Shown one piece after another: positions 5,477 through 62,340 of a stretch of DNA of 64,000 nt (positions within the stretch are counted from its first letter, which is position 1; each line of letters starts with the position of its first letter). Below the pieces are notes generated by a model, which saw nothing but the letters and a program-made list of their open reading frames with translations, had not been told where the DNA came from and searched no databases. Origin of the DNA: Candidatus Uhrbacteria bacterium (GTDB taxonomy: Bacteria; Patescibacteriota; Patescibacteriia; UBA9934); assembly GCA_018664485.1 (NCBI GenBank), contig JABJOE010000007.1:132353-196352 (forward strand). The letters are read 5' to 3'. Made by a program: the position numbers and the translations under genes.

Positions 5477-5560
5477 ATTCCGTTATTGAGTGAATCTTGC
5501 GTCTGATGTGAAATTGTATCGAGATACATGATCTCAAAAGCGTGTCGGAGCATATCACTT

Positions 5561-5596
5561 AAAACGCCACCTGGCAAGAGTGCTAGGTGGCTTTTG
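5561..5596 (-). terminator. Hairpin terminator (usable in both directions) downstream of the Cys-rich gene 5720..7348.
   Basis: GCCACCT (5566-5572) / AGGTGGC (5585-5591) 7-bp stem with a 12-nt loop. T4 follows on the plus strand and an A/T run flanks it on the other side. Confidence 0.4.
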
Positions 5597-5719
5597 AAAA
5601 CTTTTGGCGAAGGTCGGGCACATTCGTACACCACAAACTATCTTTGCAGCATGCACCTATACAAATTTATAAAATTTTGAATTCCGCGACAGTACAACAA
5701 TATTCAAACAGAAAACTTA

Positions 5720-7348
5720 CTACCAAGTCGGATTACAATCTACTTCATTCCCTTCTACATCCTTACAGTAAAACCAACCAAATGCTGACGTAGAGTTTGC
5801 ACAGTTAGCAAAGCTGTCAGCCTGCAAAGCACCCAGCCAATCCAACACAACGTCGCCGGCAAGAGCTACTTCCATCTCTGCTATCTCGAGCGCACTCATA
5901 TTATCCAATGCCTCCTGCGAGATATCATCAACAGATGTAGCGTTTGTGAACACTTTACATCCTTCCCCACCGGCAGGTGCGAGTCCACATGGATCGCTAT
6001 CACATAAAGCGCTCAAGAGCGGAAAATCATCATCGGCGCCTGTACGATCATCAACTTCATTATCATATTGATATTCATACTCATACTCAAAGACTGTGTC
6101 ACCTGCCTCATATACAGATTCAACAAGATCATACGCTCGACACCCCATACTCTCGTCAGCAAGAGCATCTTGTCTCAACGTGTCGCAATCAAGCGTATCG
6201 CCATCAGCCGGGTATACAAGCTCGCTGCAAGCATCAAAGCTTGTGTCTAAAACCGGAGCATCATAATAAAGACAGTATAGTTTCTCTCCAGTAATAGACG
6301 ATGCAGCAGCAGCATCTAACACATCCTGCTCATCCTTATCTACAAGGTATCCGCACATCGAGCTCGATGGCGTGGCACCGCTCACACTGGCTAACCCTGA
6401 AAATACCTCTTTACAACGCAAACATGCAAAACCATTTTCACTCTCGGCAGATGCAGCACACACTTCATACGCAGTATCACATCCACTATAGAAACACTCG
6501 TCTCCAACTTGGATAGTGGCTTCGGTATCTCCAACGTCATCAACAGTTCCTTTATTTCCACAATCTTCCTGTCCTGAAATCTCAGGGGTAATAGTAAGCC
6601 CCGCAACTTCCATCGCTTCACAGGTAGATTCAGGATCAATGAACACAACCGTACGAATGGCTGGCGGTGTTAGGCGGTTCAAGTTCGTAAGATTCGGATC
6701 TACCATCTGCCCCATAGCAACTGCTGACAGCAAAAGCACAAGACCCGTTACTGCATTTTTAACTCTCTCCTTAGCTCTTCCGATACGTCCACTATCCCCT
6801 CGAGCCAACATCCACTGTAATCCCCCTACCATTATGACAAGCACAACAAGTAATGAAGCTGTGGGAAGTAAAAAGTTGTATACGACGTTAATATAATCCG
6901 GAATACTATCCACCTCCTCGGCAGATCCAATTACAATACTTAAGTCCACTGCCTCTGGTGGTCGGTAACAATAATGCTCACCTGGAATACAATCAGCTGG
7001 CTGGCCCTGATCCCACTCATAGGGAACTTCCTCCCCATCAATCTCTGTTAAGTTATTTTCACATTCATATTGAGACCAACATTTATCATTATCTGCCGGC
7101 GTTGAACCCGTCGTATAGCAAGCCATGTAATTTGAGCCTGCATCACTACACGCGGTACGACAAGATGCAGTATCTTCTAGATTCGACTCCGATAGCTGAG
7201 TAGCTCCGGCAGAAGTCTTGCACCAACAATCACAACTAGCCTCCGAATCCTCAGCAAAAACAAAACCAACCGAGCCAAAAAGCATTGAAACGGTTAGGAG
7301 CGAAATAAAAATGGCTGTTATCCTCCGCATACACAAATATGAACTCAT
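5720..7348 (-). CDS. Secreted or membrane-anchored Cys-rich acidic protein with an internal two-helix pilin-like (VirB2/TrbC-like) hydrophobic hairpin.
   Basis: N-terminal signal peptide (MRRITAIFISLLTVSMLFGSVGFVFA; the likely start is the internal ATG around 7330). More than 40 Cys residues in Asp/Glu-rich extracellular regions. The central segment LLPTASLLVVLVIMVGGLQWMLARGDSGRIGRAKERVKNAVTGLVLLLSAVAMGQMV is TM helix - basic loop - TM helix. No enzymatic motif is present. Confidence 0.6.
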   Translation of the reverse strand: MSSYLCMRRITAIFISLLTVSMLFGSVGFVFAEDSEASCDCWCKTSAGATQLSESNLEDTASCRTACSDAGSNYMACYTTGSTPADNDKCWSQYECENNLTEIDGEEVPYEWDQGQPADCIPGEHYCYRPPEAVDLSIVIGSAEEVDSIPDYINVVYNFLLPTASLLVVLVIMVGGLQWMLARGDSGRIGRAKERVKNAVTGLVLLLSAVAMGQMVDPNLTNLNRLTPPAIRTVVFIDPESTCEAMEVAGLTITPEISGQEDCGNKGTVDDVGDTEATIQVGDECFYSGCDTAYEVCAASAESENGFACLRCKEVFSGLASVSGATPSSSMCGYLVDKDEQDVLDAAAASSITGEKLYCLYYDAPVLDTSFDACSELVYPADGDTLDCDTLRQDALADESMGCRAYDLVESVYEAGDTVFEYEYEYQYDNEVDDRTGADDDFPLLSALCDSDPCGLAPAGGEGCKVFTNATSVDDISQEALDNMSALEIAEMEVALAGDVVLDWLGALQADSFANCANSTSAFGWFYCKDVEGNEVDCNPTW

Positions 7349-13974: not shown

Positions 13975-14772
13975 ATGACTACCGCCCCCTGGAAAACAAC
14001 GCTGCTCGCGCGCCACATTGACGCCGAAACAGCTCACCGCACTGCCATTGAAGACATGTTGACTGCCGCTCCCGACCAGATGACGAGCGATCGCATCCAT
14101 ATCGTGGATCGCTTGATCTCCTGGATCAAGGCAGACGCCAAGACCCTCCCAATCGCGGGCGCGGTCACCAGACTGCTGGCATTCAGCACCCACCGCTACA
14201 CCGAACTTCGCTGGCAAGTGATCGATCAGATTCCCCAGGGTGACATCCCAACCCTGCGTGACATGATCACCACCCTGCCCGGCCCCCTGCGCGCAGGGGT
14301 GTTCACCACGAAAGACATCGAGGCCGCCCGCATCAGCGTGCTCGCCGAACATGTCCTCACTTCGGCCAATGGCGACTGGGACCTCTTCTGCCGACTGACC
14401 CAGACGAACGGCTTCGACAGCCCAGAACAGGCCTGGAAAATGGTTCCTGTGGACCAACGCGTGGATTTCGTCAACGGCGGGAAGCGGCGCATGCTCGAGG
14501 CTGCCAGAAAGGGCGCTCAGTTCTTCAGCGGCGGACCATCTGCCAACGCGGAGTTCTGGAATCGTCTGCTCGCGCAGGTCCAAAACCTCGACTTCCCAAC
14601 CTGGGAGCACTTCTGCAATGCTGTGCCTTCGCACACGCACACTACGCTCGGTATCTCTGCGACTACTGCAGCACCAAACAAGCGTCGCGAACCCATCACG
14701 ATTGATTCCGACGACGTCTTCGTCGAGGCTTCTACCGTGTCTGGTGACAGCTCCATTGCCGACTGGCGATGA
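13975..14772 (+). CDS. Hypothetical protein (265 aa) encoded in a high-GC insert. No family recognised.
   Basis: A stop-free 800 nt in GC-rich DNA is very unlikely by chance. It has a protein-like composition and its own promoter. The antisense ORFs (13969..14640, 14226..14492, 14517..14756 minus) are Arg/Gly-rich artefacts typical of the opposite strand of a GC-rich gene. Confidence 0.5.
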   Translation: MTTAPWKTTLLARHIDAETAHRTAIEDMLTAAPDQMTSDRIHIVDRLISWIKADAKTLPIAGAVTRLLAFSTHRYTELRWQVIDQIPQGDIPTLRDMITTLPGPLRAGVFTTKDIEAARISVLAEHVLTSANGDWDLFCRLTQTNGFDSPEQAWKMVPVDQRVDFVNGGKRRMLEAARKGAQFFSGGPSANAEFWNRLLAQVQNLDFPTWEHFCNAVPSHTHTTLGISATTAAPNKRREPITIDSDDVFVEASTVSGDSSIADWR

Positions 14773-15201: not shown

Positions 15202-15657
15202 GTTCGGGATACGAGACAGTCGCCCTGCGCCCAGCGCTCAGGGAGGAAAGTCCGAACACCGCGTAGGCAGCAATGTTTACGGATACAGAACGTCGCTAAC
15301 GGCGACCGGGATATAGCATTATCAAACGAGGAATGAATTCGTTCTTTCCTCGAGCCATGAATTTAGGTTCACGGCCACACCAATGTAAACCTAGGGAAAG
15401 TGCCACAGAGACAATACTAGTTTGGCTCCGGTCAAACAAAAGGTGAAAAGTGATTTGAGGTTTGAGATCAGATGATCTAGGTAACTGTTACCAACAAGCC
15501 ACATTTCTCGCCCCACGGTGACGTGGTGGCGTGGTAAACCCGTTCTGGTGCAAGAGCAAGTTTGGTAGCTCGCTCGACCGGCATAGCAATATGTCGGCTA
15601 GATAGATGACTGTCGCCTCGCAAGAGGATACAGAATTCGGCTTACAAGTCTCCCGAC
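15202..15657 (+). ncRNA. rnpB: RNase P RNA (bacterial type A).
   Basis: Universally conserved P4 strands are present: 5' GGGAGGAAAGTCCGAACACC (15241-15260) and 3' ACAGAATTCGGCTTACAAG (about 15630-15648). The 5' AGACAGTCGCC and 3' TAGATAGATGACTGTCGCC segments match E. coli M1 RNA positions. It is a GC-rich island with a promoter upstream and a terminator downstream. Confidence 0.85.
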
Positions 15658-15668
15658 GAACATCAAGA

Positions 15669-17201: not shown

Positions 17202-17786
17202 TCAAGGAGCGAGCTGGCCCCATGGGAAGTGGGTGACATCGAGGTCTAGGTCTATGCCAAGACTATCTCGGAGAAACACTCGAAGTGCATCGAATGTCCT
17301 TGGTCCGAATCCCACCATCTTCGTACCCGAATCGGTGATAGTCCGTATGGTTGGCATTTCTCGGCGCGTACCCGTACGATGCCGTACCCAGAATCCACCT
17401 TTCCCCTTGTAGATCAAGAGAAGATCTGCGACATGAGTAATTCCATGATCTTGAGAGCGATTGAATATCGCTGTCGGAACGTCATCGAGTTTATCAATCA
17501 GCTTGAACAAGTTCGGATTCCATCTTGGCTCAGGGTCACGCAGAAGCGCCTCGGTAAGCTCGCTCGCTGGACACACGATGGTCAATTCTGCCCCCTCTCG
17601 TTCCCAGTCGTGGGCAACCGAGGTGAATCCCTCGAACAAAAACGCAGTATTCTCGCCTGCTCCGCCGGTATAAATGAATGACTCAGCTGAACGATTGCGC
17701 GCAAGGACCATGAGCTCAGAGGCTGTGGGCTCGCGTCTGATCGGACTGGGACCATTACCATCTTGTAGGTCGATGAAAATCTTCAT
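17202..17786 (-). CDS. Hypothetical protein (194 aa) in a high-GC insert.
   Basis: ORF in a GC-rich block. A weak Rossmann-like G-rich motif (FIYTGGAGENTAF) is not enough to assign a family. Confidence 0.45.
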   Translation of the reverse strand: MKIFIDLQDGNGPSPIRREPTASELMVLARNRSAESFIYTGGAGENTAFLFEGFTSVAHDWEREGAELTIVCPASELTEALLRDPEPRWNPNLFKLIDKLDDVPTAIFNRSQDHGITHVADLLLIYKGKGGFWVRHRTGTRREMPTIRTITDSGTKMVGFGPRTFDALRVFLRDSLGIDLDLDVTHFPWGQLAP

Positions 17787-18003: not shown

Positions 18004-18441
18004 CTAGATCAGAAAGTTGATTGCAAGTCTTGATACCACTGGCACCGTCCACCCAACGCACAACACGCAAGTGACAAGAAGAGCGTCACGCTCAACGAAG
18101 TCCCAATCAGCCACGCTCTTTCCGTAGTTTTTCTTTCGTGCCGTGTATCCGACAAAAAAGAAAAAACAAACGAGGCAGATGGCAATTGCAGTTAGCTCGG
18201 CCAGGGAATCATCAGCGTACAGTGAGACTGTTGCAAACGACAAGTCCAAATACAGGCAGGCGAATATGCCGATCGGAATCAAGGTCCAATACTTCGCAAT
18301 AATGGACCACCTGTTTGAGATCGCGAGCTCAACAGCCGAAACCAATCTAAATATGGCTATAGCGACCATCAGCTTGATCCGATACCTTAGAGTTCCTCTC
18401 GCCAAAATGCACCTCCAAACGTTGTAATTTTCGCTGACCAA
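18004..18441 (-). CDS. Hypothetical small membrane protein (145 aa, 3-4 TM).
   Basis: Hydrophobic segments. No conserved motif recognised. Confidence 0.45.
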   Translation of the reverse strand: MVSENYNVWRCILARGTLRYRIKLMVAIAIFRLVSAVELAISNRWSIIAKYWTLIPIGIFACLYLDLSFATVSLYADDSLAELTAIAICLVCFFFFVGYTARKKNYGKSVADWDFVERDALLVTCVLCVGWTVPVVSRLAINFLI

Positions 18442-18566: not shown

Positions 18567-20024
18567 CTAGCAGATCTTGCGAAAAGATATGGTGCCATCA
18601 CCAACGTGACGGACTGTACACACCCCGTTACCTACAGAGACGAGGTCTTTCACCGTTGTATTCCCTGCGCGCACTCGAGTACGAATCAAACCATCCCAGA
18701 CTGAATCTATGCTAGTTGATCTGGTAAGAACCGAGAACACGGGGATTGCACGCCCGCTATCCTCCCTCACCTCTCTGTCATCTTGCCAGTACAGAATCAA
18801 ACGGTCACCAACGCGACGCATACTGCTACCGCGAGTCCGCAGTACGATTTCGTCCAGACCATCAATCAACTCACCGCTCGCACTGTCGATGAACACAAGT
18901 CGGTCAGTTTTCTCGAACGTAATCAACGCGGCGAGAGTCCTGTCGTTGAGCACTTCGATTTGCCTGAATGTATAGCCCTGAGGAAGAAGAAAGGACTTCA
19001 TTCCACCTTGGAATCTGAATTCAACGATTCTCTCCCGTGATTCAGCCCCTTCGGAGACCACGAAAAAAACACGATCACCCCCTCTACACTGCCTACCTGC
19101 ACGAATGTCCACTTTACCATCGATAGTGATCTGTCCGATGGTGCCATCAATGGTCATCAGAAACACTATCGAGCCACCTCCACGGGCCGGGAAGGTTTCC
19201 AGCCACTGTCGGTTTCCCTCTACCTCTCGTAAAGTACCAAACAGCGCCTGCCCACCATTGCCCGACTGACGCATACCGCCCCAAATGACAGAGTTGAGTC
19301 GACGAATGCCGATGACCGGGAATGCACCCATAGCGCCAAGTACATACGCACCTTCAGCACTACAAAGCTCACGGTGAGTTTTATCCGATCCTTTTGCACG
19401 CCACAAATGAAGTACGCGGCAGACGCGATCTTGCGAGATTTGAACCGCCATATGCCGTGCACCCTCACTATCCTCCCAAAGCCAAGGGAGAAACTTCCGA
19501 TTGAAGAGCGCCTCTTCTCCCTTATTGTAGCCCTGACGATGCGTGACGAGATACTCTGGCGCAAGCTCTACACTCCAATCACCCCACACGAGATGATACA
19601 AGCCCCTATCGTCACGGTAGGAGAATGAAATTTCCCCACGCTCCCATTGAAGATGACTCACGTTGAAATGCCCTCTATCCGATGGCGCATTCTTGCTCCA
19701 GTCACCGTAAGGAGCGGACCTGTCTAGAATCTCAACACGACCATGACCATCAGCCCCCCGAGCACTCACGGCAATCGTACCGTCAGCGGCAACTGCAATA
19801 TCATGCACCTGCAGTATCCGACATTTGATCTGACCACTCTCACCCGATGCGAGGGTTGTAGGGTTGCCACGGAGACCCTCATGGGCACGCTCAAGGCGTG
19901 GGTTGTCGAAATCACCAGTACTAATGGCTGTAGCTATTTCCACAAGCATACCGGCGAACACACTTCTCAGACTTTCTGACATCATGTACTCCATTCCTAA
20001 AATGATGCAACGCGGATCAACCAA
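18567..20024 (-). CDS. Hypothetical protein (485 aa) in a high-GC insert; possibly a beta-rich/propeller-like fold.
   Basis: Long ORF in a GC-rich block with recurring DG-T/S-I and GxVxI strand-like repeats. No catalytic motif recognised. The start is uncertain (MVDPRC... or an internal MEYMMSES). Confidence 0.5.
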   Translation of the reverse strand: MVDPRCIILGMEYMMSESLRSVFAGMLVEIATAISTGDFDNPRLERAHEGLRGNPTTLASGESGQIKCRILQVHDIAVAADGTIAVSARGADGHGRVEILDRSAPYGDWSKNAPSDRGHFNVSHLQWERGEISFSYRDDRGLYHLVWGDWSVELAPEYLVTHRQGYNKGEEALFNRKFLPWLWEDSEGARHMAVQISQDRVCRVLHLWRAKGSDKTHRELCSAEGAYVLGAMGAFPVIGIRRLNSVIWGGMRQSGNGGQALFGTLREVEGNRQWLETFPARGGGSIVFLMTIDGTIGQITIDGKVDIRAGRQCRGGDRVFFVVSEGAESRERIVEFRFQGGMKSFLLPQGYTFRQIEVLNDRTLAALITFEKTDRLVFIDSASGELIDGLDEIVLRTRGSSMRRVGDRLILYWQDDREVREDSGRAIPVFSVLTRSTSIDSVWDGLIRTRVRAGNTTVKDLVSVGNGVCTVRHVGDGTISFRKIC

Positions 20025-22521: not shown

Positions 22522-22896
22522 TCACGAGTTCTCCAATTTTACACTCTTGATGTCCATACGGTGTCTAGAAGCCCACTCAGTGACTACGACTACACCTACT
22601 CCCTTGATAGAGATCCGCCCATTGCAGAGCTTCACAAGCCACGCGTTTACAGTGTAGCGCTTGCCATCAAATTCAAATGACGTCATGTATACAGCGATGT
22701 TAGCCACACACTGAGGCTCGCCACCATATGTAGTAAGACATGCAATCACAGAGCCGACGCTGTGACCAATATTCTTCACCTGCACCACCTTGCCCGACGG
22801 CAACCCTACAAGGAATACCGGGACTGTCGTTCTGTCTGGTACAAAGTTGTACCGGATTCCTTCGAATGAAAGTTTATACACTCCTACTTCCATCAA
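22522..22896 (-). CDS. Hypothetical protein (124 aa), opposite strand, GC-rich, inserted between glycosyltransferase genes.
   Basis: ORF with its own downstream hairpin and back-to-back convergent terminators. No family recognised. Confidence 0.4.
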   Translation of the reverse strand: MMEVGVYKLSFEGIRYNFVPDRTTVPVFLVGLPSGKVVQVKNIGHSVGSVIACLTTYGGEPQCVANIAVYMTSFEFDGKRYTVNAWLVKLCNGRISIKGVGVVVVTEWASRHRMDIKSVKLENS

Positions 22897-26958: not shown

Positions 26959-28857
26959 ATGCGCAACACCAATCAAACCGAAAGCAGCTTCAAATGTGCA
27001 ACTTTCCAAAAAAATATGACACATAAAAAAACGTCCCACCGTAAACGTGCACACAAGAAAAAGCCTTCACGAGAAGAAGAGCAAGAGCTCCTCATGGAAG
27101 AAGGTCTTGAAGCTATTTATGGAAAGAAGGAGGACATCGACTTTTCAAAACTCGACCACGATCAGGATCGTTTAACTAAACTCCTGATTCGTTTAGTTGT
27201 CGGTCTGGGTCTAGTAGCTACTATGGCTTGGAGCGGCTTTTTTGTCTTCATGAACTATGTAAACCCGCCACGAGATGAAACATTCACTCTGGAAATCTTG
27301 ATGGATGAAACTTTGGTTAGCGGAGAGGCTACAACGATTGAAATACTTTACACAAATCCAACCACCGTCCCTATCGCTGCCCTCTCGATCGACGTGAACC
27401 TTCCATCTTCCTTTGTAATAAGCCAAACCAATCAGCCACCGACAGATACGGATCAACTCATTTGGGATCTTGGAGAACTGACTGGCTTAAGTGACAATCA
27501 TATCGTAATTGAAGGAACTTGGTTTGCAGACACGCCGTCTGAAACACCCATACAGGCCTACGCGACCTACCGACCAGGTAATTTCAACTCTGAGTTTGAA
27601 GAGATTGCTGTAGCATATGTGACCAGCCTTTCAAGTGTCTTGGAGCTAAGTGTAGACGGTCCTGAGGAGCTTGCTCCTGGTGAAACTGGTGCCTACGCAA
27701 TTACATTGATAAACAATGGTGAATTGGCATACGAAGAAGTGGATATTTCGTTAGATTTGCCCGATGGTTTTTATCTTGAAAGTAGTGAACCTGAGCTTGA
27801 AGCCGGCTCACCTGCAAACTGGACAATTGAAACAATTGACCCCGAACTCGAAACGACTATTCTCTTTGAAGGTTCCTTTGCGGCCGACATCGAAGGTTTC
27901 CAATACTTTGATACCTTGGCCTACATGCAAATTGATGGACGTGAGCTTTTGCAAACGCAAGTACAGAACTATACAGACGTATTACGGAGTGATGTTTCCG
28001 TATCCCTCGCAGCCAATGGTGCGACAGACACCGTAGCACTCGATCAAGACGGCACATTACGCGTCAGTTTAGGTCTTGAGCAGTCAGGAAGCGAGGATCT
28101 AGAAGACTATTCCGTCCTATTGAGTTTTGAAAGTGAAGACAGCTTCCCAATTAACTGGAGCAGCTCACAGCTAGACGGAGGTACGCTTACACAAGACGGA
28201 ATCGCGTGGAGCGCTGAGGACATTGGAGCGATGGCGTCGGGTGTAAAAGAACTTCTCAACCTCTCATTCCCTATTGAAGCTATCGGATCTGGAGATGCTG
28301 ATCAATTTGAAATAACCGCACTCTTTACAACGGCTGACGGTACAGTTCGTTCGTCACCAATCACCGTATCGATAAACTCAGAGGCAGAACTCGCGACATC
28401 TGTTCGTTACTTCAACGAAGAGGGGCAAGCACTTGGATCTGGACCAATCCCTCCAGTCATCGATGAGGAAACAAGTTACCGGGTGTACTGGGTTTTGGAA
28501 AACGACCTACACACCCTCAAAGATATTCGCGTGAGCGCTACCCTACCACCACATGTAACGTGGTCTGATAAAGTAAATACTGATCTGGGTGATATAACCT
28601 TCGACAGCGGAAGTAGTACAGTGAGCTGGACTGTCGCAGAGCTCTCAACTGCAATCAGTCATCTGGAAGGCTACTTCACCATCTCTATCACACCGGACGT
28701 GGACGATATCGGATCTTTTGTAAAATTAACCTCGAGCACGGATTTGCTTGCGACAGACACAGTAACTGGTACACAGCTTCACCGGGCACAGGACAATCTC
28801 ACTACCGAGGCGCCTGATGATGAGTTTGCAAGCGGGCAAGGAATTGTTGTAGAGTAG
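26959..28857 (+). CDS. Membrane-anchored surface protein with repeated beta-sandwich (DUF11/CARDB-like) domains.
   Basis: Basic N-terminus, one TM (LLIRLVVGLGLVATMAWSGFFVF), then repeated ~100-aa acidic Thr/Ser-rich modules. The start is uncertain: in-frame ATGs at 26959 and 27016 are both possible. Confidence 0.5.
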   Translation: MRNTNQTESSFKCATFQKNMTHKKTSHRKRAHKKKPSREEEQELLMEEGLEAIYGKKEDIDFSKLDHDQDRLTKLLIRLVVGLGLVATMAWSGFFVFMNYVNPPRDETFTLEILMDETLVSGEATTIEILYTNPTTVPIAALSIDVNLPSSFVISQTNQPPTDTDQLIWDLGELTGLSDNHIVIEGTWFADTPSETPIQAYATYRPGNFNSEFEEIAVAYVTSLSSVLELSVDGPEELAPGETGAYAITLINNGELAYEEVDISLDLPDGFYLESSEPELEAGSPANWTIETIDPELETTILFEGSFAADIEGFQYFDTLAYMQIDGRELLQTQVQNYTDVLRSDVSVSLAANGATDTVALDQDGTLRVSLGLEQSGSEDLEDYSVLLSFESEDSFPINWSSSQLDGGTLTQDGIAWSAEDIGAMASGVKELLNLSFPIEAIGSGDADQFEITALFTTADGTVRSSPITVSINSEAELATSVRYFNEEGQALGSGPIPPVIDEETSYRVYWVLENDLHTLKDIRVSATLPPHVTWSDKVNTDLGDITFDSGSSTVSWTVAELSTAISHLEGYFTISITPDVDDIGSFVKLTSSTDLLATDTVTGTQLHRAQDNLTTEAPDDEFASGQGIVVE

Positions 28858-29147
28858 TAGACTCCTGTAACAGCCATTGTCCTGACTTCATTCGCTGTCT
28901 GTTGGGCTACAACAAGCTCCAACCTCGTTAGCGTAGCCCTGCTATGCTTCCTTGATTGTCATTTGTTTCGCCACAACATCCACTCGAATGAATCTAGAAC
29001 ATGACCGTCACAGGAGTCTTTCGCTTTCAATTTTCAGATACAAACCAATACACAGTTTTATAATAATCAATAGACACTCGCAACCTCACACTCTTTTTAA
29101 TCGATAAGCTGCGGAGCGTTTTCTTTTACAGGGAGAGTAGATCTGGT

Positions 29148-29324
29148 ATGCTATTTACGCCATTTGGCATCAACCTGATACCCGGAAACATCGTGAACAA
29201 CATCATTGCAGGCGGCGGATACGGCTATGTCGTCACAGACGGAGGCAGCCTCGGCGTCAAGAACGGAAGTACCCTCGTGACCATTGGCGGCCACGGTCAG
29301 TCACCCCAGCTCATGGAGAAGTGA
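29148..29324 (+). CDS. Small Gly-rich peptide (58 aa), MLFTPFGINLIPGNIVNNIIAGGGYGYVVTDGGSLGVKNGSTLVTIGGHGQSPQLMEK; missing from the ORF track because it is under 60 aa.
   Basis: GGAGAG sits 10 nt upstream of the ATG. A hairpin terminator lies 40 nt downstream. Composition resembles Gly-rich bacteriocins/microcins. It sits in a high-GC insert. Confidence 0.3.
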   Translation: MLFTPFGINLIPGNIVNNIIAGGGYGYVVTDGGSLGVKNGSTLVTIGGHGQSPQLMEK

Positions 29325-29366
29325 CCGTCACCTCCACCGCGTAGCGTCAACTCTCGGCGCCTTGGA

Positions 29367-29400
29367 CCGGTCAGCTCTGCTGGCCGGTTCCTTCGTTTTC
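29367..29400 (+). terminator. Intrinsic terminator after the 58-aa peptide gene.
   Basis: CCGGTCAGC (29367-29375) TCT GCTGGCCGG (29379-29387) with one G-U pair, followed by TTCCTTCGTTTTC. Confidence 0.4.
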
Positions 29401-29480
29401 ACGCCACAATACCCTTTACATAATAGACCTTTCTGCTATGCTAATCAGGCTCATCTCCGAGCTCCAGCAAGAAGGTACCC

Positions 29481-29615
29481 ATGAACTACGAACTCATCTC
29501 CGGCGAACTCCAAGGAGCACCACCCGACGGCGTGCGTGTCCCTGTCGGTGGTGGCCGAAAACGCTCACTCTCCATCGTGCATCGCGGCGAAAACGGCATC
29601 GTCTCGACCGTCTGA
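29481..29615 (+). CDS. Small basic peptide (44 aa), MNYELISGELQGAPPDGVRVPVGGGRKRSLSIVHRGENGIVSTV.
   Basis: ATG preceded by AAGGT. TTTACA-N17-TATGCT lies upstream at 29415-29443. A perfect 8-bp hairpin follows (29679-29700: ATCCGGCC / GGCCGGAT, then T-rich). Confidence 0.25.
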   Translation: MNYELISGELQGAPPDGVRVPVGGGRKRSLSIVHRGENGIVSTV

Positions 29616-29812
29616 TGGATACCTCCATCGACGAGAGCGCGTGCGTCTAGGTGGCCTGAAGTCACCAATACGCTTCTGATCCGGCCCCTTGTGGCCGGAT
29701 CTTTGCATTGTGGATATTTATTGTATTCACCTCTCAATCATGCTATCGTATATTAGAACTTTGACTTGTCATCCAGACACTTCGGGTTCGTGCTCCACGC
29801 TTTGGACACATC

Positions 29813-29944
29813 ATGGAACAGCCGCTGACCGCCATCCCACCCGCCGCCGCTTTCGACCACACCGCCGACCATGCCGACTGCGACGCCGCGGACACCGTGC
29901 ACACCGCCTACACCGACGTCAACAACGAAGCCGCCGCTGGCTGA
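29813..29944 (+). CDS. Small acidic peptide (43 aa), MEQPLTAIPPAAAFDHTADHADCDAADTVHTAYTDVNNEAAAG.
   Basis: Third small ORF in the same high-GC insert. It is followed by hairpin CCTGG-ATAAA-CCAGG plus T6 at about 30030-30050. Confidence 0.2.
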   Translation: MEQPLTAIPPAAAFDHTADHADCDAADTVHTAYTDVNNEAAAG

Positions 29945-30068
29945 GACCGCGCAAGACGCGCAGTCTGAGTCAGTGAGTCTGGGCGCGATCGGAACTCCGA
30001 TCGCGCCCGCTTGCTTTATACAAAAACACCTGGATAAACCAGGCGTCTTTTTTATTACAAATTTATTA

Positions 30069-31019
30069 CTACAGCCGAATCCTCAACCGTCTTAAAACAC
30101 GGACTGTGCGGTATGCTCCGTACCACAAATGCTTCACTGGTAAATCAAACGTACCAGGATGCTCTACAACCTCACCTGAAAATCCATATTTATATCGAGA
30201 TATTCCAGACCACGCATGTTTCTTTGAAGCACCAACTGGAGCCACTCCCCAAAAATCAAACCACTTCATATCTTTTTCTATAGCATCAGCTATCAAATGC
30301 CAATGCAGCGCGTAGGGCGCCATAACGTTACGATGCAAATTACTAGATGCGCCGTGCAAATATGTTCTCACTCCAGCAAAATCGATCATTATGTTTGCGG
30401 CCAGTGGTCTCCCTTCATAAAACCCCATAGCAAGGTATGCCTTCGCCTCCCCATTCAACGTATCGAGCATCTTCTGATAATACGCATTTGGGTGTCCTGA
30501 AAACTGATCACGATTAGTTGTCTGGTCAAGCAGCCTCACAAAATCTGGGAACCTCTTTCGTGGAACTATTTTAGACTCAACCCCCTTTTTCAAACCTAAA
30601 CGAATATTATAACGGGTTTTCGATTTACACTCCTTAAGTAAAGTCTCCTCGCCCTTAGACAAATCCAGCATAACCGTCGTTGCAGGTTGCATATGCGGAA
30701 CTTTCAACATACGCCCACCCTCACCGGGTTCAATACGCAAAAACATGGCTTCTGGCAGCTGTTCGCGGAGCACCTCAACCTGCCGTTCGATAGACGCATT
30801 TCCAAACGGCCCCTTTGGCACGTACCAGTAAAACTGACCAGCGGGCAAAGGGATCTTAACCGCTTGAGCCATAACTACCCCCTGCATATCAGACACATAG
30901 ACGCGCTCAACCTCACGCCCTAGCGCACGCTGAAACTCACCCCACTCCCATGAGTGTAAAAACGCACCGAATCGAGGAGCGTACCGTTTAACCGCATTGT
31001 TCCATTCTGTGTGATTCAT
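30069..31019 (-). CDS. FemAB-family peptidyltransferase (peptidoglycan interpeptide-bridge formation; GNAT-like fold).
   Basis: 316 aa with FemAB/FemX-type N-terminal (MNHTEWNNAVKRYAPRFGAFLHSWEWGEF) and C-terminal acyltransferase regions (FDFWGVAP...KYGFSG). Confidence 0.65.
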   Translation of the reverse strand: MNHTEWNNAVKRYAPRFGAFLHSWEWGEFQRALGREVERVYVSDMQGVVMAQAVKIPLPAGQFYWYVPKGPFGNASIERQVEVLREQLPEAMFLRIEPGEGGRMLKVPHMQPATTVMLDLSKGEETLLKECKSKTRYNIRLGLKKGVESKIVPRKRFPDFVRLLDQTTNRDQFSGHPNAYYQKMLDTLNGEAKAYLAMGFYEGRPLAANIMIDFAGVRTYLHGASSNLHRNVMAPYALHWHLIADAIEKDMKWFDFWGVAPVGASKKHAWSGISRYKYGFSGEVVEHPGTFDLPVKHLWYGAYRTVRVLRRLRIRL

Positions 31020-40091: not shown

Positions 40092-40469
40092 ATGAAAACA
40101 ATTCACTGGATCCTCTTTACTATCTCCTTCTGGATTATCCTTGCGCCATTCATTGGTGACGATATCCTCGTTCTATTTTTCGGAGAATTATTTGATCAAG
40201 ACCAGATAGTGAGTCTGCTTCGTTGGGACGACCTCTTCCTCGGACTCGGTATTACAGTCCTAGCGCTCGTTGCAGTCACGATGGAACAAGGCTCAAAAAA
40301 ATACCCTGGCCTCAAAGCAATGCACTGGATGCAGGTAATGCTTGGTACCTGGATTGCCGTTGCGCCATTCGCACTTAACTTCACCTACGAGCAATTCACC
40401 TGGTCACACCTTGTAACCGGTATGCTCGTGACGACATTCGCGCTGATGCACATAACCTACGAACCATAA
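40092..40469 (+). CDS. SPW-repeat-like small membrane protein (an APF variant of the SPW motif).
   Basis: Two repeats: W-I-I-L-APF-IG and LGTWIAV-APF-ALNF, each embedded in TM helices. They resemble the LGxWLxxSPW pattern of the SPW_repeat family. Confidence 0.45.
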   Translation: MKTIHWILFTISFWIILAPFIGDDILVLFFGELFDQDQIVSLLRWDDLFLGLGITVLALVAVTMEQGSKKYPGLKAMHWMQVMLGTWIAVAPFALNFTYEQFTWSHLVTGMLVTTFALMHITYEP

Positions 40470-43585: not shown

Positions 43586-43684
43586 ATTCTCGGTAATCAC
43601 TGAGTGAGGGTGGCAAGCTGTACAAGATGTCCTGGCGCCTATGTCATGGACAGCTATCCCGACCATGGGATAGGAGAACATACA
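43586..43684 (+). repeat. Array repeat copy A (M2-type module only), immediately upstream of ORF1.
   Basis: ...GAGGGTGGCAAGCTGTACAAGATGTCCTGGCGCCTATGTCATGGACAGCTATCCCGACCATGGGATAGGAGAACATACA-ATG is homologous to copies B, C and D. The SD (AGGAG) is embedded in GGGATAG, which can pair with the upstream CTATCCC. Confidence 0.6.
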
Positions 43685-44047
43685 ATGGAAGAAAAGCTTG
43701 CAACCGATCAGAAGCGCCTCTCAAATGAGTTCCTGCTTGAATTCTTGAGTGCGACTAACAATGACGAGCGCTGCAAAGCGCTTATCAAGGAGTCATACCG
43801 ACTCTGGCCGAACAGGGATGGAAATCTCTACGATGGAGCCGACCACCCGTACTGTGTCTGGGAGAACAATGCCACAACTGCCGTTTCACGCGAGGAGAAT
43901 GCAAAGATCTGTCTCCAACACGCGAAATATGCAGACAGCAACTGCCCGTTCGCAGATGGCGGAGTCCTCTACGACTTTGTCACAACTAGTGTACTTCTGT
44001 GGGAGCCAGAAAAAGCCCGCATCAAAGAAGTTTACGAGTCACTGTAG
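43685..44047 (+). CDS. Cassette ORF1: hypothetical 120-aa soluble protein.
   Basis: Start ATG 43685, with GGAG 8 nt upstream. The ORF-track start at 43604 would read through the repeat. No recognised family. Confidence 0.5.
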   Translation: MEEKLATDQKRLSNEFLLEFLSATNNDERCKALIKESYRLWPNRDGNLYDGADHPYCVWENNATTAVSREENAKICLQHAKYADSNCPFADGGVLYDFVTTSVLLWEPEKARIKEVYESL

Positions 44048-44058
44048 TTCTACTATCT

Positions 44059-44269
44059 CCCCAAGCAACTCGCTTGGGGCTCCGCAGAGCACATCACACA
44101 GTGGTGGATTCCGCAGAGCAGGAATACTTCCCGCTTCAATACAGCCCTCGACCAACGAGGACATCTAATACATTCCCGGAGACTACCGGGTGAAGATGGC
44201 AGTCTGTGTAATATATCCTGACATTTGTGTCATGGATAACTATCCCTTGGTACGGATAGAAGTATACAT
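44059..44269 (+). repeat. Array repeat copy B (modules M1+M2) between ORF1 and ORF2.
   Basis: M1 contains hairpin CCCCAAGC-AACT-GCTTGGGG (44059-44079) and a direct repeat CCGCAGAGC x2. M2 contains CCTCG-ACCAA-CGAGG, CCGG-AGACTA-CCGG, the GGATAACTATCC palindrome, and CTATCC-CTTGGTAC-GGATAG just before the ATG. Confidence 0.65.
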
Positions 44270-44656
44270 ATGAGCGCGATCCTCTTTCTCCTGCTTTCAA
44301 GTCTCCTAGCACACGCAGACGACATCGTCACTACAACAAGGGCCGAAACGGTTGTCGGTTATAGTGACGAGACTCTGATCTCCATAACTTCCGAAGTTGG
44401 AAGAGAGTGCTACGCCGCACGAAAGTGGCGACACTCAACTCTCGTATGCAGCGACATAGCAGTCTACACAATCCTTACGCACTCAGGTACATCATTGAAA
44501 AGTGTCAGTGTACCCATGTCGGCAACGACCTGGAATACTGCTCCGGTACCTGGTAGCCGAATCGAAATTAGGTGCGAAGTAACAGTAGATGAGTACAACA
44601 ACACAAACGGGTACCCGCTATTCATCCGGCGCCTTGATGAGTGCTGGGCGAACTAG
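44270..44656 (+). CDS. Cassette ORF2: hypothetical secreted 128-aa protein (signal peptide, 6 Cys).
   Basis: MSAILFLLLSSLLAHADD signal peptide. No recognised family. Confidence 0.5.
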   Translation: MSAILFLLLSSLLAHADDIVTTTRAETVVGYSDETLISITSEVGRECYAARKWRHSTLVCSDIAVYTILTHSGTSLKSVSVPMSATTWNTAPVPGSRIEIRCEVTVDEYNNTNGYPLFIRRLDECWAN

Positions 44657-44751
44657 TCAAACCCTTCTCCCCCTGGTACTAACCGGGGGCTCGATATAGA
44701 GCATGACAGAATCGTGCCTTGCGTCGAGCTAGATCATATCTGGCCTACATG

Positions 44752-44876
44752 CAGCCCTCGACCAACGAGGACTTCCAATAATCCGGATTTCCCGGTGAGG
44801 ATGACAAGCTGTACTAGATATCCTGCCCCTCGGGTCATGGATAGCTATCCCTTGGTACGGATAGAAGTAATAAGAG
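44752..44876 (+). repeat. Array repeat copy C (M2 module); the preceding M1 is replaced by a different GC hairpin (44669-44689).
   Basis: GCCCTCGACCAACGAGGACTTCCAATAATCCGGATTTCCCGGTGAGGATGACAAGCTGTACTAGATATCCTGCCCCTCGGGTCATGGATAGCTATCCCTTGGTACGGATAGAAGTAATAAGAG-ATG is about 95% identical to copy D across M2. Confidence 0.65.
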
Positions 44877-45404
44877 ATGCCAGAACATCAGAAAACTGAG
44901 GCTATGCTAAAAATGATGGCCAGCCGGACGGCAAAGGAGCTTCCGCCCCTTCCAGATGGATCCAAAATCATTCTGGAAGACGCACCTTCCGGACTCGTTC
45001 TAGCCAGAAACAGTCAGCGAGGAGGAATGTTTAGAAGGTGGAACGATGACAGAGGTCTTTTTCGCCGATTACTAGATCTGCTTCTTGGGTACAGTAGGAA
45101 AGGAGTACCCGTTCGACTGTTCGACCTGACCTGCTCAAACCAGTTCGACCTAGTTGAGTCAGAGCACGTCATAAAGGAAGCGTACATGGAGCTTCGGTGC
45201 ATCATCCAAACAAAGCCCAAACAGGTCTACCGAGAACTGTTTGGTAAAGCTGCACCTCCTCACTGGTCAAATAAGGAGGAGATGTGTATGCATAGACTAA
45301 ATGATGCATTCAAAATCAATCAACGGAACCGCACTGATCTCTCTGGGGTCTTCGCGATCCGGTATGCGTGCGAATGCGCCATAAAAGCAAGCTACCCACT
45401 CTAG
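44877..45404 (+). CDS. Cassette ORF3: hypothetical 175-aa protein.
   Basis: ATG directly follows repeat C. No recognised family. Confidence 0.5.
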   Translation: MPEHQKTEAMLKMMASRTAKELPPLPDGSKIILEDAPSGLVLARNSQRGGMFRRWNDDRGLFRRLLDLLLGYSRKGVPVRLFDLTCSNQFDLVESEHVIKEAYMELRCIIQTKPKQVYRELFGKAAPPHWSNKEEMCMHRLNDAFKINQRNRTDLSGVFAIRYACECAIKASYPL

Positions 45405-45410
45405 TACCTT

Positions 45411-45610
45411 CCCCAAGCTCTAAGCTTGGGGCTCCGCAGAGCACATCACATCGTGGTGGATTCCGCAGAGCAGGATAATATCCCGCTTAAATACAGCCCT
45501 CGACCAACGAGGACTTCCAATAATCCGGATTTCCCGGTGAGGATGACAAGCTGTACTAGATATCCTGCCTCTCGGGTCATGGATAGCTATCCGGAAGGAT
45601 AGTGGTAGTC
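45411..45610 (+). repeat. Array repeat copy D (M1+M2) between ORF3 and ORF4.
   Basis: CCCCAAGCT-CTA-AGCTTGGGG (45411-45431), then CTCCGCAGAGC...TTCCGCAGAGC, then M2, ending with the GGATAGCTATCC palindrome and CTATCC-GGAA-GGATAG. Confidence 0.65.
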
Positions 45611-45886
45611 ATGAAAATTCAAACAAAAACAGCTAAAGCGTTCCTTGAAGATAAAGTTGGCACAGCCACCATCCAGCTAATGTGGCTCCTGTTCACAGTC
45701 GAATGGGCATGGATGTTCTCTGGTGTAGCAGAGTACATGATCGCAGCACCAATCGGTGGAACGATCGTAACCTTTATTATCGCCGCGGCAAGTGAAAGCC
45801 GCGAGCAAGCAGAGGCCAGACAAGTGTCGCTAATGTTCCTCGCCTCTCCGCTTGCGTTCGCTATCTACGTCGTCCCTATGTTTTGA
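45611..45886 (+). CDS. Cassette ORF4: hypothetical 91-aa membrane protein (2-3 TM).
   Basis: Start ATG 45611 (MKIQTKT...). The ORF-track GTG at 45602 lies inside the repeat. An intrinsic terminator follows at 45913-45962. Confidence 0.5.
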   Translation: MKIQTKTAKAFLEDKVGTATIQLMWLLFTVEWAWMFSGVAEYMIAAPIGGTIVTFIIAAASESREQAEARQVSLMFLASPLAFAIYVVPMF

Positions 45887-55011: not shown

Positions 55012-55235
55012 AAAATTTTATTGTTGTGCATAACTTTCACGTTTTTGTTTTTTTTATTGCACAAACAACGATATACTTTAAACAGAAGCATTTTTGTTTC
55101 TTCGTTGTATGGTGCACGCACGTGCGCATGATGCAGTGAAAAAAATTTGCGCGACGATCAAAAAAAACTTTGCTGTCGACAAAGTGATCGACGTGACATA
55201 TGACATTTCAATTGTCACTAGAAAGGGTACAAAAT

Positions 55236-55526
55236 ATGCCTGCTAAAAAACGAAAGCCAGCTAAAAAGAAAGTAGCTAAGCGAAAGCCTGCGAAACGCAA
55301 AGTTGCGAAACGTAAGCCAGCTAAGCGAAAGGTTGCTAAGCGTAAGCCTGCAAAACGAAAGACTGCAGCAAAGCGTAAACCAGCTAAAAAGAAAGTAGCT
55401 AAGCGAAAGCCTGCGAAACGCAAAGTTGCGAAACGTAAGCCAGCTAAGCGAAAGGTTGCTAAGCGTAAGCCTGCAAAACGAAAGACTGCAGCAAAGCGTA
55501 AACCAGCTAAACGTAAAAAGCGTTAA
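55236..55526 (+). CDS. Histone H1-like / Hc2-like basic repeat protein (AKRKPAKRKV repeats, 96 aa).
   Basis: MPAKKRKPAKKKVAKRKPAKRKVAKRK... is almost pure Lys/Arg/Ala/Pro. RBS-like AAAGGG lies upstream. Start ATG 55236 is preferred over the ORF-track start at 55200. Confidence 0.7.
   Translation: MPAKKRKPAKKKVAKRKPAKRKVAKRKPAKRKVAKRKPAKRKTAAKRKPAKKKVAKRKPAKRKVAKRKPAKRKVAKRKPAKRKTAAKRKPAKRKKR
55258..55503 (+). repeat. Perfect 123-bp x 2 tandem duplication inside the histone-like gene.
   Basis: 55258-55380 is 100% identical to 55381-55503, verified base by base. Each unit encodes 41 aa and itself contains roughly 30-nt sub-repeats. Confidence 0.9.
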
Positions 55527-62046: not shown

Positions 62047-62340
62047 TTCTAGGAGATTACAAAGGGACTGGTGTCCTCCGCATCATCGAAAAGCGTGTTC
62101 TCTCGATAATGAAGTTCAGGCCCGAAGATTTACGTCCATTTAATCTGTCGGGACCCGCTCTGCGTGACACCGCAGTCACGTTGGAGGACATCTCCACCCA
62201 TTCGTTTACGTGGGTGCGTCTGATGACATGCGCGACCGTAGCTGAGCTCACGCCCAGATGCGAACGCAAGTCTCGACGTACCCACGACAATCACAAGCAC
62301 TAAACCCGCCGATGTCTCGCATCAGCGGGTTTATCTTTCT
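62047..62340 (+). ncRNA. Candidate GC-rich structured ncRNA of about 290 nt, with its own promoter-like element and intrinsic terminator; class unknown.
   Basis: TCGACA (62011-62016), an 18-nt spacer, TAGATT (62035-62040). Multiple nested helices (GGAG[GGAC-TGGT-GTCC]CTCC; CGTGAC-ACCGCA-GTCACG; TGGAG-GACAT-CTCCA; CGTGGGT...ACCCACG). Terminal AAACCCGC (62303-62310) / GCGGGTTT (62325-62332), followed by ATCTTTCT. The overlapping ORFs (62057..62290 minus, 62109..62303 plus) are Arg/Cys-rich and implausible. Confidence 0.4.

Follow-up and report, generated by a model that had tools for sequence, protein, structure and literature searches.

What occupies the GC-rich gap between two convergent genes in the chromosome of a Candidatus Uhrbacteria bacterium? 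The gap lies in a 64,000-nt stretch of contig JABJOE010000007.1 (assembly GCA_018664485.1, positions 132,353 to 196,352 of the forward strand; hereafter, the window), where an initial annotation, made without database searches, had noticed a GC-rich insert with three tiny peptide genes. We found that the insert contains three short plus-strand open reading frames (ORFs) of 58, 44, and 43 amino acids (aa) with coding-type codon periodicity, each followed by a terminator-like hairpin, and that in related genomes the same site is either empty or filled with different genes. The explanation we favor, with moderate confidence, is a variable accessory-gene slot at the junction of a DUF11-type and a FemAB-family gene of the Uhrbacteria chromosome, holding three mini-gene cassettes that resemble phage “morons”. 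The three peptides match no known family and stand as probable coding orphans.

The GC-Rich Block and Its Surroundings

The block extends from 29157 to 30054 (898 nt). Its mean GC content is 0.57 and rises to 0.615-0.665 in 200-nt windows, as compared with a mean of 0.453 for the whole window; in the 64 kb analyzed, only one other block above the GC threshold is longer than 800 nt. It lies inside a 1.2-kb spacer (28858-30068) with convergent genes on either side, so the initial description of a GC-rich block between convergent backbone genes was accurate. The flanking genes are as follows.

26959-28857, plus strand: DUF11-type surface protein gene (632 aa), left neighbor of the block
30069-31019, minus strand: FemAB-family peptidoglycan-bridge transferase gene, right neighbor of the block; RuvA is next after FemAB

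A DUF4012 gene and three GT4 glycosyltransferase genes lie upstream of the DUF11 gene, and Pfam families found in ~10 kb on both sides of the block are those of tRNA synthetase, TrmB, RuvA, FemAB, DUF11, DUF4012, and glycosyltransferases. The longest ORF in the block is 95 aa, in agreement with the earlier statement that none exceeds 100 aa. No tRNA, integrase, or repeat boundary was found at the site, nor was any diversity-generating retroelement or long repeat involving the block.

A compositional outlier of this kind could be an assembly chimera, and the initial annotation had named this outcome as one that would undo its reading. Fifteen nearby public contigs (ENA, JGI, and Logan) were each 100% identical to the window, and three contigs from two independent assemblies spanned both junctions (L091, and a single ENA contig represented twice, as L001 and L092). 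A chimera is thus ruled out. Micro-variation that would permit an estimate of selection was sought in the same near contigs, and none was seen, every one of them being 100% identical.

Three Short ORFs with Coding-Type Composition

The ORFs and their ribosome-binding sites are listed below, with GC content at the first, second, and third codon position (GC1/2/3) and the frequency of C at the third position (C3).

29131-29137, plus strand: Shine-Dalgarno sequence GGGAGAG, 10 nt before the ORF58 ATG; its duplex with the anti-Shine-Dalgarno sequence (-8.5 kcal/mol) is the strongest of the 41 window gene starts examined
29148-29324, plus strand: ORF58, 58 aa, Gly-rich (13/58), net charge 0, no transmembrane segment; GC1/2/3 0.54/0.41/0.69, C3 0.52
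29469-29475, plus strand: Shine-Dalgarno sequence AAGAAGG, 5 nt before the ORF44 ATG; duplex -5.7 kcal/mol
29481-29615, plus strand: ORF44, 44 aa, Gly/Val/Arg-rich, net charge +1; GC1/2/3 0.69/0.47/0.64, C3 0.57
29813-29944, plus strand: ORF43, 43 aa, acidic (net charge -8), Ala/Asp/Thr-rich; GC1/2/3 0.70/0.50/0.84, C3 0.72

The positions and lengths of the three ORFs, the GGAGAG motif in front of ORF58, and the acidity of ORF43 had all been correctly given in the initial annotation. ORF44, which was described there as basic, has a net charge of just +1. The expectation that standard annotation would miss such short genes failed too, since public gene calls on the source contig of ~986 kb include all three.

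The ORFs differ from their surroundings in several respects. Their GC content is 0.55-0.69 (0.43-0.47 in the flanks), their GC3 is 0.64-0.84 (~0.40 in backbone genes), and their C3 is 0.52-0.72, as opposed to ~0.24 in backbone genes of the plus strand. At most backbone gene starts, the anti-Shine-Dalgarno duplexes fall between 0 and -3 kcal/mol. Codon usage scoring, which had been recommended at the outset, revealed coding-type periodicity with C-ending third positions in exactly the three frames proposed, while the longer Arg-rich ORFs that overlap them have flat GC by codon position and no codon periodicity, as would be expected of the out-of-frame artefacts they had been taken for. The three ORFs are thus probably small protein-coding units and not RNA genes, and their frames would be translated.

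Three other accounts of the composition were considered and dropped. If the true genes were on the minus strand, with GNN codons, the codon differences in the IPP motif described below would all be non-synonymous; moreover, all signals are on the plus strand. High expression as a cause of C-ending codons is at odds with the core genes of the window, including ribosomal-protein-like ones, which are not C3-rich. Fast evolution as a cause of high GC3 is at odds with moderately fast core genes (such as a 399-aa protein, 40-64% identical), which keep backbone GC3.

No signal peptide or transmembrane segment was found in ORF58, ORF44, or ORF43; their maximum 19-residue hydropathy values (KD19) are 1.12, 0.23, and 0.15, respectively. 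A single-sequence AlphaFold2 model of ORF58 contained three short strands at low confidence (pLDDT, the predicted local distance difference test score, of 47) and was unusable for a fold search.

Promoters and Terminators of the Three Units

The block contains five promoter-like sites (1.7 expected) and four terminator-like hairpins (1.3 expected), the latter all on the plus strand and each 3′ of an ORF. Two exact copies of the pair TTTACA-N16-TATGCT are present at a distance of 290 nt, against 0.03 expected in the whole window. With the ORFs numbered as units 1 to 3 from left to right, the signals are the following.

28859-29020, plus strand: long imperfect hairpin (~160 nt) directly after the DUF11 stop codon; -56.7 kcal/mol versus -35.2 +/- 3.8 kcal/mol in shuffles (z = -5.7)
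29125-29152, plus strand: promoter-like box TTTACA-N16-(TG)G-TATGCT, a near-duplicate of the unit-2 promoter (19-nt repeat D4, 290-nt spacing)
29364-29390, plus strand: unit-1 intrinsic terminator, a 12-pair stem followed by CTTCGTTTTC
29415-29442, plus strand: unit-2 promoter TTTACA-N16-TATGCT with extended -10 TG
29678-29701, plus strand: unit-2 terminator, nine perfect pairs and a weak T-tract
29721-29749, plus strand: unit-3 promoter TTGTAT-N17-(TGC)TATCGT
29980-30053, plus strand: unit-3 double terminator, a 13-pair perfect hairpin (29980-30009) and then CCTGG-ATAAA-CCAGG (30029-30043) with a T-run to 30053

According to the initial annotation, each ORF has a promoter-like box and a terminator of its own. 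This holds for the promoters of units 2 and 3, whose leaders are 30-60 nt long, and for all three terminators, but the unit-1 promoter is uncertain. Some dimensions had to be corrected: the hexamers in front of ORF44 are present but 16 rather than 17 nt apart, the terminator after ORF58 has 12 rather than nine pairs in its stem, and the hairpin after ORF44 is indeed perfect but has nine pairs rather than eight. The CCTGG-ATAAA-CCAGG hairpin with its T-run is present 3′ of ORF43 as described, and the 13-pair hairpin that precedes it had gone unmentioned. The double terminator would insulate the convergent FemAB gene.

The box at 29125-29152 is not the promoter of ORF58, because the ORF58 ATG sits within its -10 hexamer. 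The box could be a vestige or the promoter of a shorter transcript, and the unit-1 promoter is probably located upstream, near a TATAAT at 29059. When compared by eye, the basal stem of the long hairpin behind the DUF11 gene (AGACTCCTGT / ACAGGAGTCT) resembles a short terminator hairpin that fills the corresponding spacer of a related genome, L009. The unit-3 promoter block TCATGCTATCGT is identical in another relative, L006, where the -35 hexamer is TTGAAC at equal spacing.

The Same Site in Related Genomes

Relatives were found with a FemAB query in a set containing one genome per species, in metagenomes, and in a protein collection, followed by contig look-ups. The contents of the slot are given below together with the identity of the adjacent FemAB protein to that of the window.

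L006, FemAB 86%: two GC-rich units, 46 and 52 aa
L009, FemAB 85%: a 65-nt hairpin spacer and nothing more
L102, FemAB 83%: an ORF44-like 34-aa peptide, then an in-frame ORF43-like stretch past a TGA, with no start codon
L010, FemAB 81%: a partial ORF43-like unit
L100, FemAB 72%: four genes of 149, 49, 38, and 59-81 aa
L007, FemAB 67%: two units, 74 and 28 aa
L109, FemAB 65%: a slot of 2.2 kb containing four GC-rich peaks and several promoters with TG-extended -10 elements
L104, FemAB 65%: a methyltransferase
L013, FemAB 58%: no insert

The initial annotation had proposed to look for the insert at this site in related genomes. It is absent from L009 and L013, and L006, L007, L100, L102, L104, and L109 have different content. 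Outside the promoter and terminator, the slot is too divergent across relatives for DNA alignment.

The slot ORFs of the relatives have GC3 values of 0.71-0.98, compared with 0.32-0.65 in the adjacent FemAB and RuvA genes; the exception is the 74-aa unit of L007 (0.47). Non-coding DNA cannot produce codon-position GC values such as 0.46/0.62/0.98, and we conclude that the content of the slot is coding-type everywhere and always foreign to its backbone. The broken copy in L102 and the empty slot in L009 imply that the cassettes are dispensable and that some copies are decaying.

Several arrangements in the relatives deserve separate mention. In L102 (1145-1500, minus strand), a single TGA separates the ORF44-like peptide (…SIISTV) from the ORF43-like stretch (…LPANDH…VEAAGI, stop), which continues in the same frame; this is either a deletion-fusion relic or a candidate for read-through. 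L102 and L010 have a near-identical terminator and FemAB end, and the ORFs upstream of the terminator are unrelated. At L100 4506-5220 (minus strand), the 149-, 49-, and 38-aa genes are tightly coupled, with overlapping stop and start codons and a GC3 of 0.86-0.97; a signal or anchor sequence lies at the N-terminus of the 149-aa protein, which also contains repeated II-x-GG motifs and is clearly paralogous to the 49-aa gene (z = 7.6). Within the L109 slot (3949-6109, minus strand), a block at ~5290-4960 is a candidate structured RNA by virtue of two cUUCGg hairpins in succession; Rfam gave no match to it.

Conservation at the Peptide Level

The initial annotation had made the coding reading depend on peptide-level conservation in homologous inserts. 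The outcome is weakly in favor of coding: what is conserved is a set of short collinear motifs whose codon differences are synonymous. Among the planned Smith-Waterman pairs, just two stood out, ORF43-L010 (p = 0.008) and ORF43-L007 (p = 0.018). The FemAB-adjacent peptides have related segments near their N-termini (…LTAIPPAAAF… in the window, …GGIPPTV… in L006, …TGIPPTA… in L010, and …NAIPPGQ… in L007). IPP is the sole tripeptide common to all four counterparts, and only 56 of 200,000 composition-preserving shuffles share any tripeptide (p ~3e-4). The IPP codons (ATC/ATT, CCA/CCG/CCT, CCC/CCG) have synonymous differences only. L100 has …KPPNAAF… at the IPP position, and the ORF43-type motif can be written as [AG]IPP / PPxAAF, being looser in L100 and L102. 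We read ORF43 as the best-conserved unit, and the FemAB-adjacent unit as apparently the oldest and most persistent.

The motifs of ORF58 are collinear with those of the 49- and 38-aa genes of L100 (II-A-GGGY..DGG..IGGH), with Gly and Ile codons that differ synonymously. Aligned to the end of the former joined to the start of the latter (IIAGGGYGYVVTDGG…TIGGH / IISGGGGYLQDGG…AIGGH), ORF58 gave p = 6e-4 and z = 4.6, values to be read with the caveat that this concatenation was chosen post hoc, after the motifs had been seen. ORF44 and the 34-aa peptide of L102 share an MN start, an (L/I)SI(V/I) block, and an (G/S)I(V/I)STV C-terminus in collinear order (..SIV....GIVSTV-stop versus MN..ISII....SIISTV-stop), a similarity that is not significant alone (p = 0.26). 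Together, these similarities give a weak but consistent indication that the three frames are translated now or were so recently, and that the peptides may be evolving very fast.

A Proposed Set of Exchangeable Mini-Genes

Units 2 and 3 would each comprise a σ70-type promoter with a TG-extended -10 element, a leader, a short ORF with C-ending codons, and one or two intrinsic terminators, while unit 1 would rely on the strongest Shine-Dalgarno sequence of the window and its own terminator. The terminators would allow the cassettes to be expressed separately without antisense transcription into FemAB. The products are predicted to be small and soluble, with ORF58 probably β-stranded and ORF43 probably disordered. 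The cassettes are foreign to the backbone in GC content, in codon usage, and in their use of Shine-Dalgarno sequences, which points to horizontal acquisition or exchange; they would have been gained or exchanged in the manner of phage morons and would turn over quickly through gain, loss, fusion, and replacement. As to what such peptides might do, our guess, a tentative one, is that they are dispensable accessory factors in interactions with a host, phage, or competitor, encoded beside a cell-envelope cluster.

Several observations weigh against this interpretation. BLAST across the loci gave no significant peptide match, the peptide similarities are all short and weak, and most Smith-Waterman pairs with shuffling controls were unremarkable; the best ORF58 alignment has the post hoc character stated above. 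The Shine-Dalgarno sequence of ORF43 is weak (-3.0 kcal/mol), and the position of the ORF58 ATG inside a strong promoter-like -10 box makes its true start or promoter uncertain. The ORF43-like part of L102 follows an in-frame TGA and has no start codon, and the slot of L009 is empty. No donor lineage was found, the argument for horizontal origin being compositional. The FemAB-adjacent cassette, finally, lies far above backbone GC even though backbone GC3 varies from 0.41 to 0.60 across lineages, and recent transfer plus amelioration is therefore insufficient as the sole explanation.

Searches for Homologues

Searches of Pfam, NCBIfam, and PHROGs (E up to 1) and of PADLOC (E up to 0.1) with the window peptides and most of the relatives’ counterparts gave nothing above noise. 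An exact look-up returned each of the three peptides as a singleton cluster. A concatenate of the three peptides gave no match in a word-indexed search of 5.8 billion proteins, a weak negative, since the self-matches were not returned either and short proteins may be poorly indexed. Exhaustive HMMER with ORF58 against 1.84 billion representatives gave five matches (E 1e-6 to 7.5e-4), all repeat-driven and to unrelated repetitive proteins, which were rejected. Also rejected was a match in viral contigs, where a marine-phage protein of 184 aa contains 23 residues that are 70% identical to a stretch of ORF58; it was reached through an 8-mer seed and judged to be a strand-turn motif and not homology. 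Nothing was found when viral contigs were searched with the L100 149-aa protein and a 265-aa orphan of the window (see below), or when phage DNA was searched with BLAST.

Alternative Explanations

The alternative that survives best is decay. The block would be the eroded remnant of a larger GC-rich acquired set, such as the 149-, 49-, 38-, and 59-aa genes of L100, and the ORFs would be leftover, non-functional fragments. ORF58 aligns over the boundary of two separate L100 genes, and ORF44 ends in a sequence similar to an N-terminal stretch of the 149-aa protein of L100 (GDNSIVSTV). The in-frame fusion of ORF44-like and ORF43-like pieces across a TGA in L102, the second piece having no start codon, the empty slot of L009, and the duplicated, badly placed promoter box at 29125 are what decay would leave behind, and the GC3 of the window ORFs (0.66-0.86) is lower than in L006 and L100 (0.86-0.98), as amelioration or relaxed selection would give. 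However, each ORF of the window has an intact start, a clean stop, and a terminator, and ORF58 and ORF44 have properly spaced Shine-Dalgarno sequences as well; the sequence is invariant over many samples, IPP differs just synonymously in four lineages, and the unit-3 promoter is conserved with L006. We consider it unlikely that the ORFs are debris.

If the ORFs were incidental, the three promoter- and terminator-bounded GC-rich blocks could be small RNA genes. The units, 240-300 nt long and each with its own promoter and terminator, have the appropriate format, their GC content is above the backbone, as in structural RNAs, and the slot block of L109 carries two cUUCGg hairpins. Whole-unit folds also appear favorable for unit 2 (z = -2.5) and unit 3 (z = -2.8). 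This excess folding energy is due to the terminators and is gone once they are removed: the remaining bodies have z = -0.25 and +0.44, respectively, with -0.6 for unit 1. Rfam searches of the block and six related loci at a permissive threshold (E up to 1) gave nothing, except for a chance 25-nt terminator match (E = 0.69). Furthermore, the strong three-base periodicity with C at codon position 3, the GC3 of up to 0.98 in relatives, the correctly spaced Shine-Dalgarno sites, and the synonymous differences in the shared motif are properties of coding sequence, and a small RNA origin is very unlikely.

In the initial annotation, ORF58 was proposed to be a class II bacteriocin or microcin, and the other two ORFs an immunity or toxin-antitoxin-like module. 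The slot resembles a bacteriocin locus in that a small Gly-rich peptide has small neighbor genes and a variable, strain-specific distribution. ORF58 shows GxxxG spacing (G32-G36-G40), its residues 19-23 (IIAGG) can be read as a double-glycine site, and the paralogue family of L100 includes the 149-aa member with a signal or anchor sequence. The other hallmarks of such loci are missing from the slot. No bacteriocin, leader, or immunity family was matched in Pfam or NCBIfam (E up to 1); the putative IIAGG leader does not have the usual upstream acidic and hydrophobic positions and does not fit the consensus; ORF58 is uncharged and insufficiently amphipathic or hydrophobic (maximum KD19 as given above); and no C39-peptidase ABC transporter, accessory protein, or modification enzyme is encoded within ~10 kb. 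ORF44 and ORF43 do not have the membrane segment of class II immunity proteins, terminators between the genes make them separate units rather than an operon, and exhaustive HMMER with ORF58 produced repeat-driven matches only. We regard a bacteriocin or microcin precursor with ORF44 and/or ORF43 as immunity protein as very improbable indeed. That ORF44 (slightly basic) and ORF43 (acidic) form a toxin-antitoxin-like or mutually neutralizing pair, as adjacent small genes of opposite charge tendency (+1 and -8) whose likenesses are adjacent and in the same order in L102, is scarcely credible: a terminator and a promoter make them independent units, no toxin or antitoxin family was matched in Pfam, NCBIfam, or PADLOC, neither is a hydrophobic type I-like peptide, ORF44 is hardly charged, and the ORF43-like gene has no ORF44-like partner in L006, L007, or L100.

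Comparison with Known Systems

The closest architectural analogue of the proposed cassettes is the phage moron. As in morons, there is one small ORF per unit with its own terminator (and, in units 2 and 3, a recognizable promoter of its own), located between two conserved genes, deviant in GC and codon usage, and present or absent at one site among relatives. The differences are that the host replicon here is a bacterial chromosome of the Candidate Phyla Radiation (CPR) with RuvA, FemAB, aminoacyl-tRNA synthetase, and glycosyltransferase genes as neighbors, that no phage DNA, PHROG, or viral homologue was found here, and that the cassettes of the window are much smaller than typical. The flexible or hypervariable islets of environmental bacteria are similar in having a fixed position across lineages with differing content and deviant composition, and the slot also borders an envelope cluster (glycosyltransferase/DUF4012/DUF11/FemAB). 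It differs from such islets in its size (~1 kb), in containing mini-genes of 43-58 aa rather than enzymes, and in having no tRNA, integrase, or repeat boundary.

Integron cassette arrays and CALINs (clusters of attC sites lacking integron-integrases) likewise consist of co-oriented short ORFs that are mostly orphans and have an imperfect palindrome behind each of them. Integron cassettes normally have no promoters of their own, whereas units 2 and 3, and possibly unit 1, carry theirs. No attC core pair (RYYYAAC...GTTRRRY) was present on either strand of 28801-30120, and no integrase Pfam family was found among the neighbors; an integron or CALIN array was therefore rejected.

Raised GC3 Elsewhere in the Window

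Raised GC3 is not confined to the slot. It marks lineage-specific genes of the window that have no Pfam family, at 1777-2298, 13975-14772, 17202-17786, 18004-18441, 18567-20024, 22522-22896, and 62109-62303; among the GC3-elevated window ORFs tested, only one, an SPW-domain protein (40092-40469), has a Pfam family. Raised GC3 thus seems to flag a lineage-specific gene set in the source genome.

The gene at 13975-14772 (plus strand) encodes the 265-aa orphan mentioned above. It has a GC content of 0.60 and a GC3 of 0.73 (backbone 0.40), lies between trpS and the RNase P RNA gene (15204-15660), and has a TTGACA-N17-TAGTCT promoter with a ~75-nt leader that includes a Shine-Dalgarno site. Its one homologue, P0005 in L088, is syntenic, 42-44% identical, and has a GC3 of 0.93; the neighboring TrpRS and Bac_transf genes are 86% identical with a GC3 of ~0.6. 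The Pfam-less minus-strand ORFs at 18567-20024, 17202-17786, 18004-18441, 1777-2298, and 22522-22896 have GC3 values of 0.50-0.58, above the backbone. The first of these encodes a 485-aa protein that is 27% identical to its positional counterpart in L088, whose GC3 is 0.85. At 62109-62303 (plus strand), a 64-aa ORF with a GC3 of 0.64 and no family match lies between two minus-strand genes and is followed by a hairpin and T-run (~62303-62335).

The GC-rich orphan genes have leaders with Shine-Dalgarno sequences, and most backbone genes have no Shine-Dalgarno sequence. At the gene starts 15724 and 37790, a TATAAT ends 8-9 nt before the ATG, which suggests leaderless mRNAs. In the whole window, plus-strand genes have more C than G at third positions (~0.24 versus 0.15) and minus-strand genes show the reverse; GC skew is negative over ~2-41 kb of the window and near zero beyond.

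Other features of the window include the RNase P RNA, one tRNA, and 5S rRNA. An 84-165-nt repeat occurs in four copies (63-88% identical, spaced by 586, 605, and 742 nt) at 43595-45611. Copy 1 overlaps the start of a Pfam-less ORF (43604-44047), copies 2 and 3 are just upstream of ORFs 44270-44656 and 44877-45404, and copy 4 is downstream of the latter; the region has the appearance of an array of paralogous genes that share a conserved leader. At 55210-55485, there is an apparently intergenic tandem array with 15/30-nt periodicity and six overlapping 123-nt copies.

Implications

The content of the slot and the wider GC3 pattern lead to a more general and distinctly speculative idea, to which we attach little probability. 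Uhrbacteria, and perhaps other CPR bacteria, could keep a shared mobile pool of extreme-GC3, Shine-Dalgarno-led, promoter- and terminator-bounded mini-genes that are swapped at fixed slots via recombination in the flanks, without a recognizable integrase, and whose peptides would act as rapidly evolving effectors in conflicts with phages or between episymbiont and host. The idea stems from the shared terminators and FemAB ends of L010 and L102, which accompany unrelated ORFs, and from the GC3 of slot genes, which is persistently 0.3-0.45 above very different backbones, as it is in orphans such as 13975-14772. Persistently high GC3 could result either from recurrent exchange with a high-GC pool that has escaped sampling (a phage, plasmid, or host) or from a locus-specific bias, e.g., GC-biased gene conversion at hot spots of recombination. 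In Patescibacteria, regions acquired horizontally are reported to consist mostly of genes of unknown function (PMC12455944), which fits our reading of the slot; that work is silent on the GC3 pattern.

As it stands, the locus is an ordinary islet of hypothetical proteins. If the peptides are made, they would represent three unclassified small-protein families of a CPR bacterium with an almost entirely uncharacterized accessory genome. The locus is also a clean example of how a streamlined genome of ~1 Mb gains and sheds tiny autonomous genes at a fixed slot while the essential convergent genes remain undisturbed. The wider GC3 pattern may prove more useful than the three peptides: GC3, C-ending codons, and Shine-Dalgarno use are simple compositional markers by which the flexible gene pool in such genomes can be recognized, and possibly a handle on its source.

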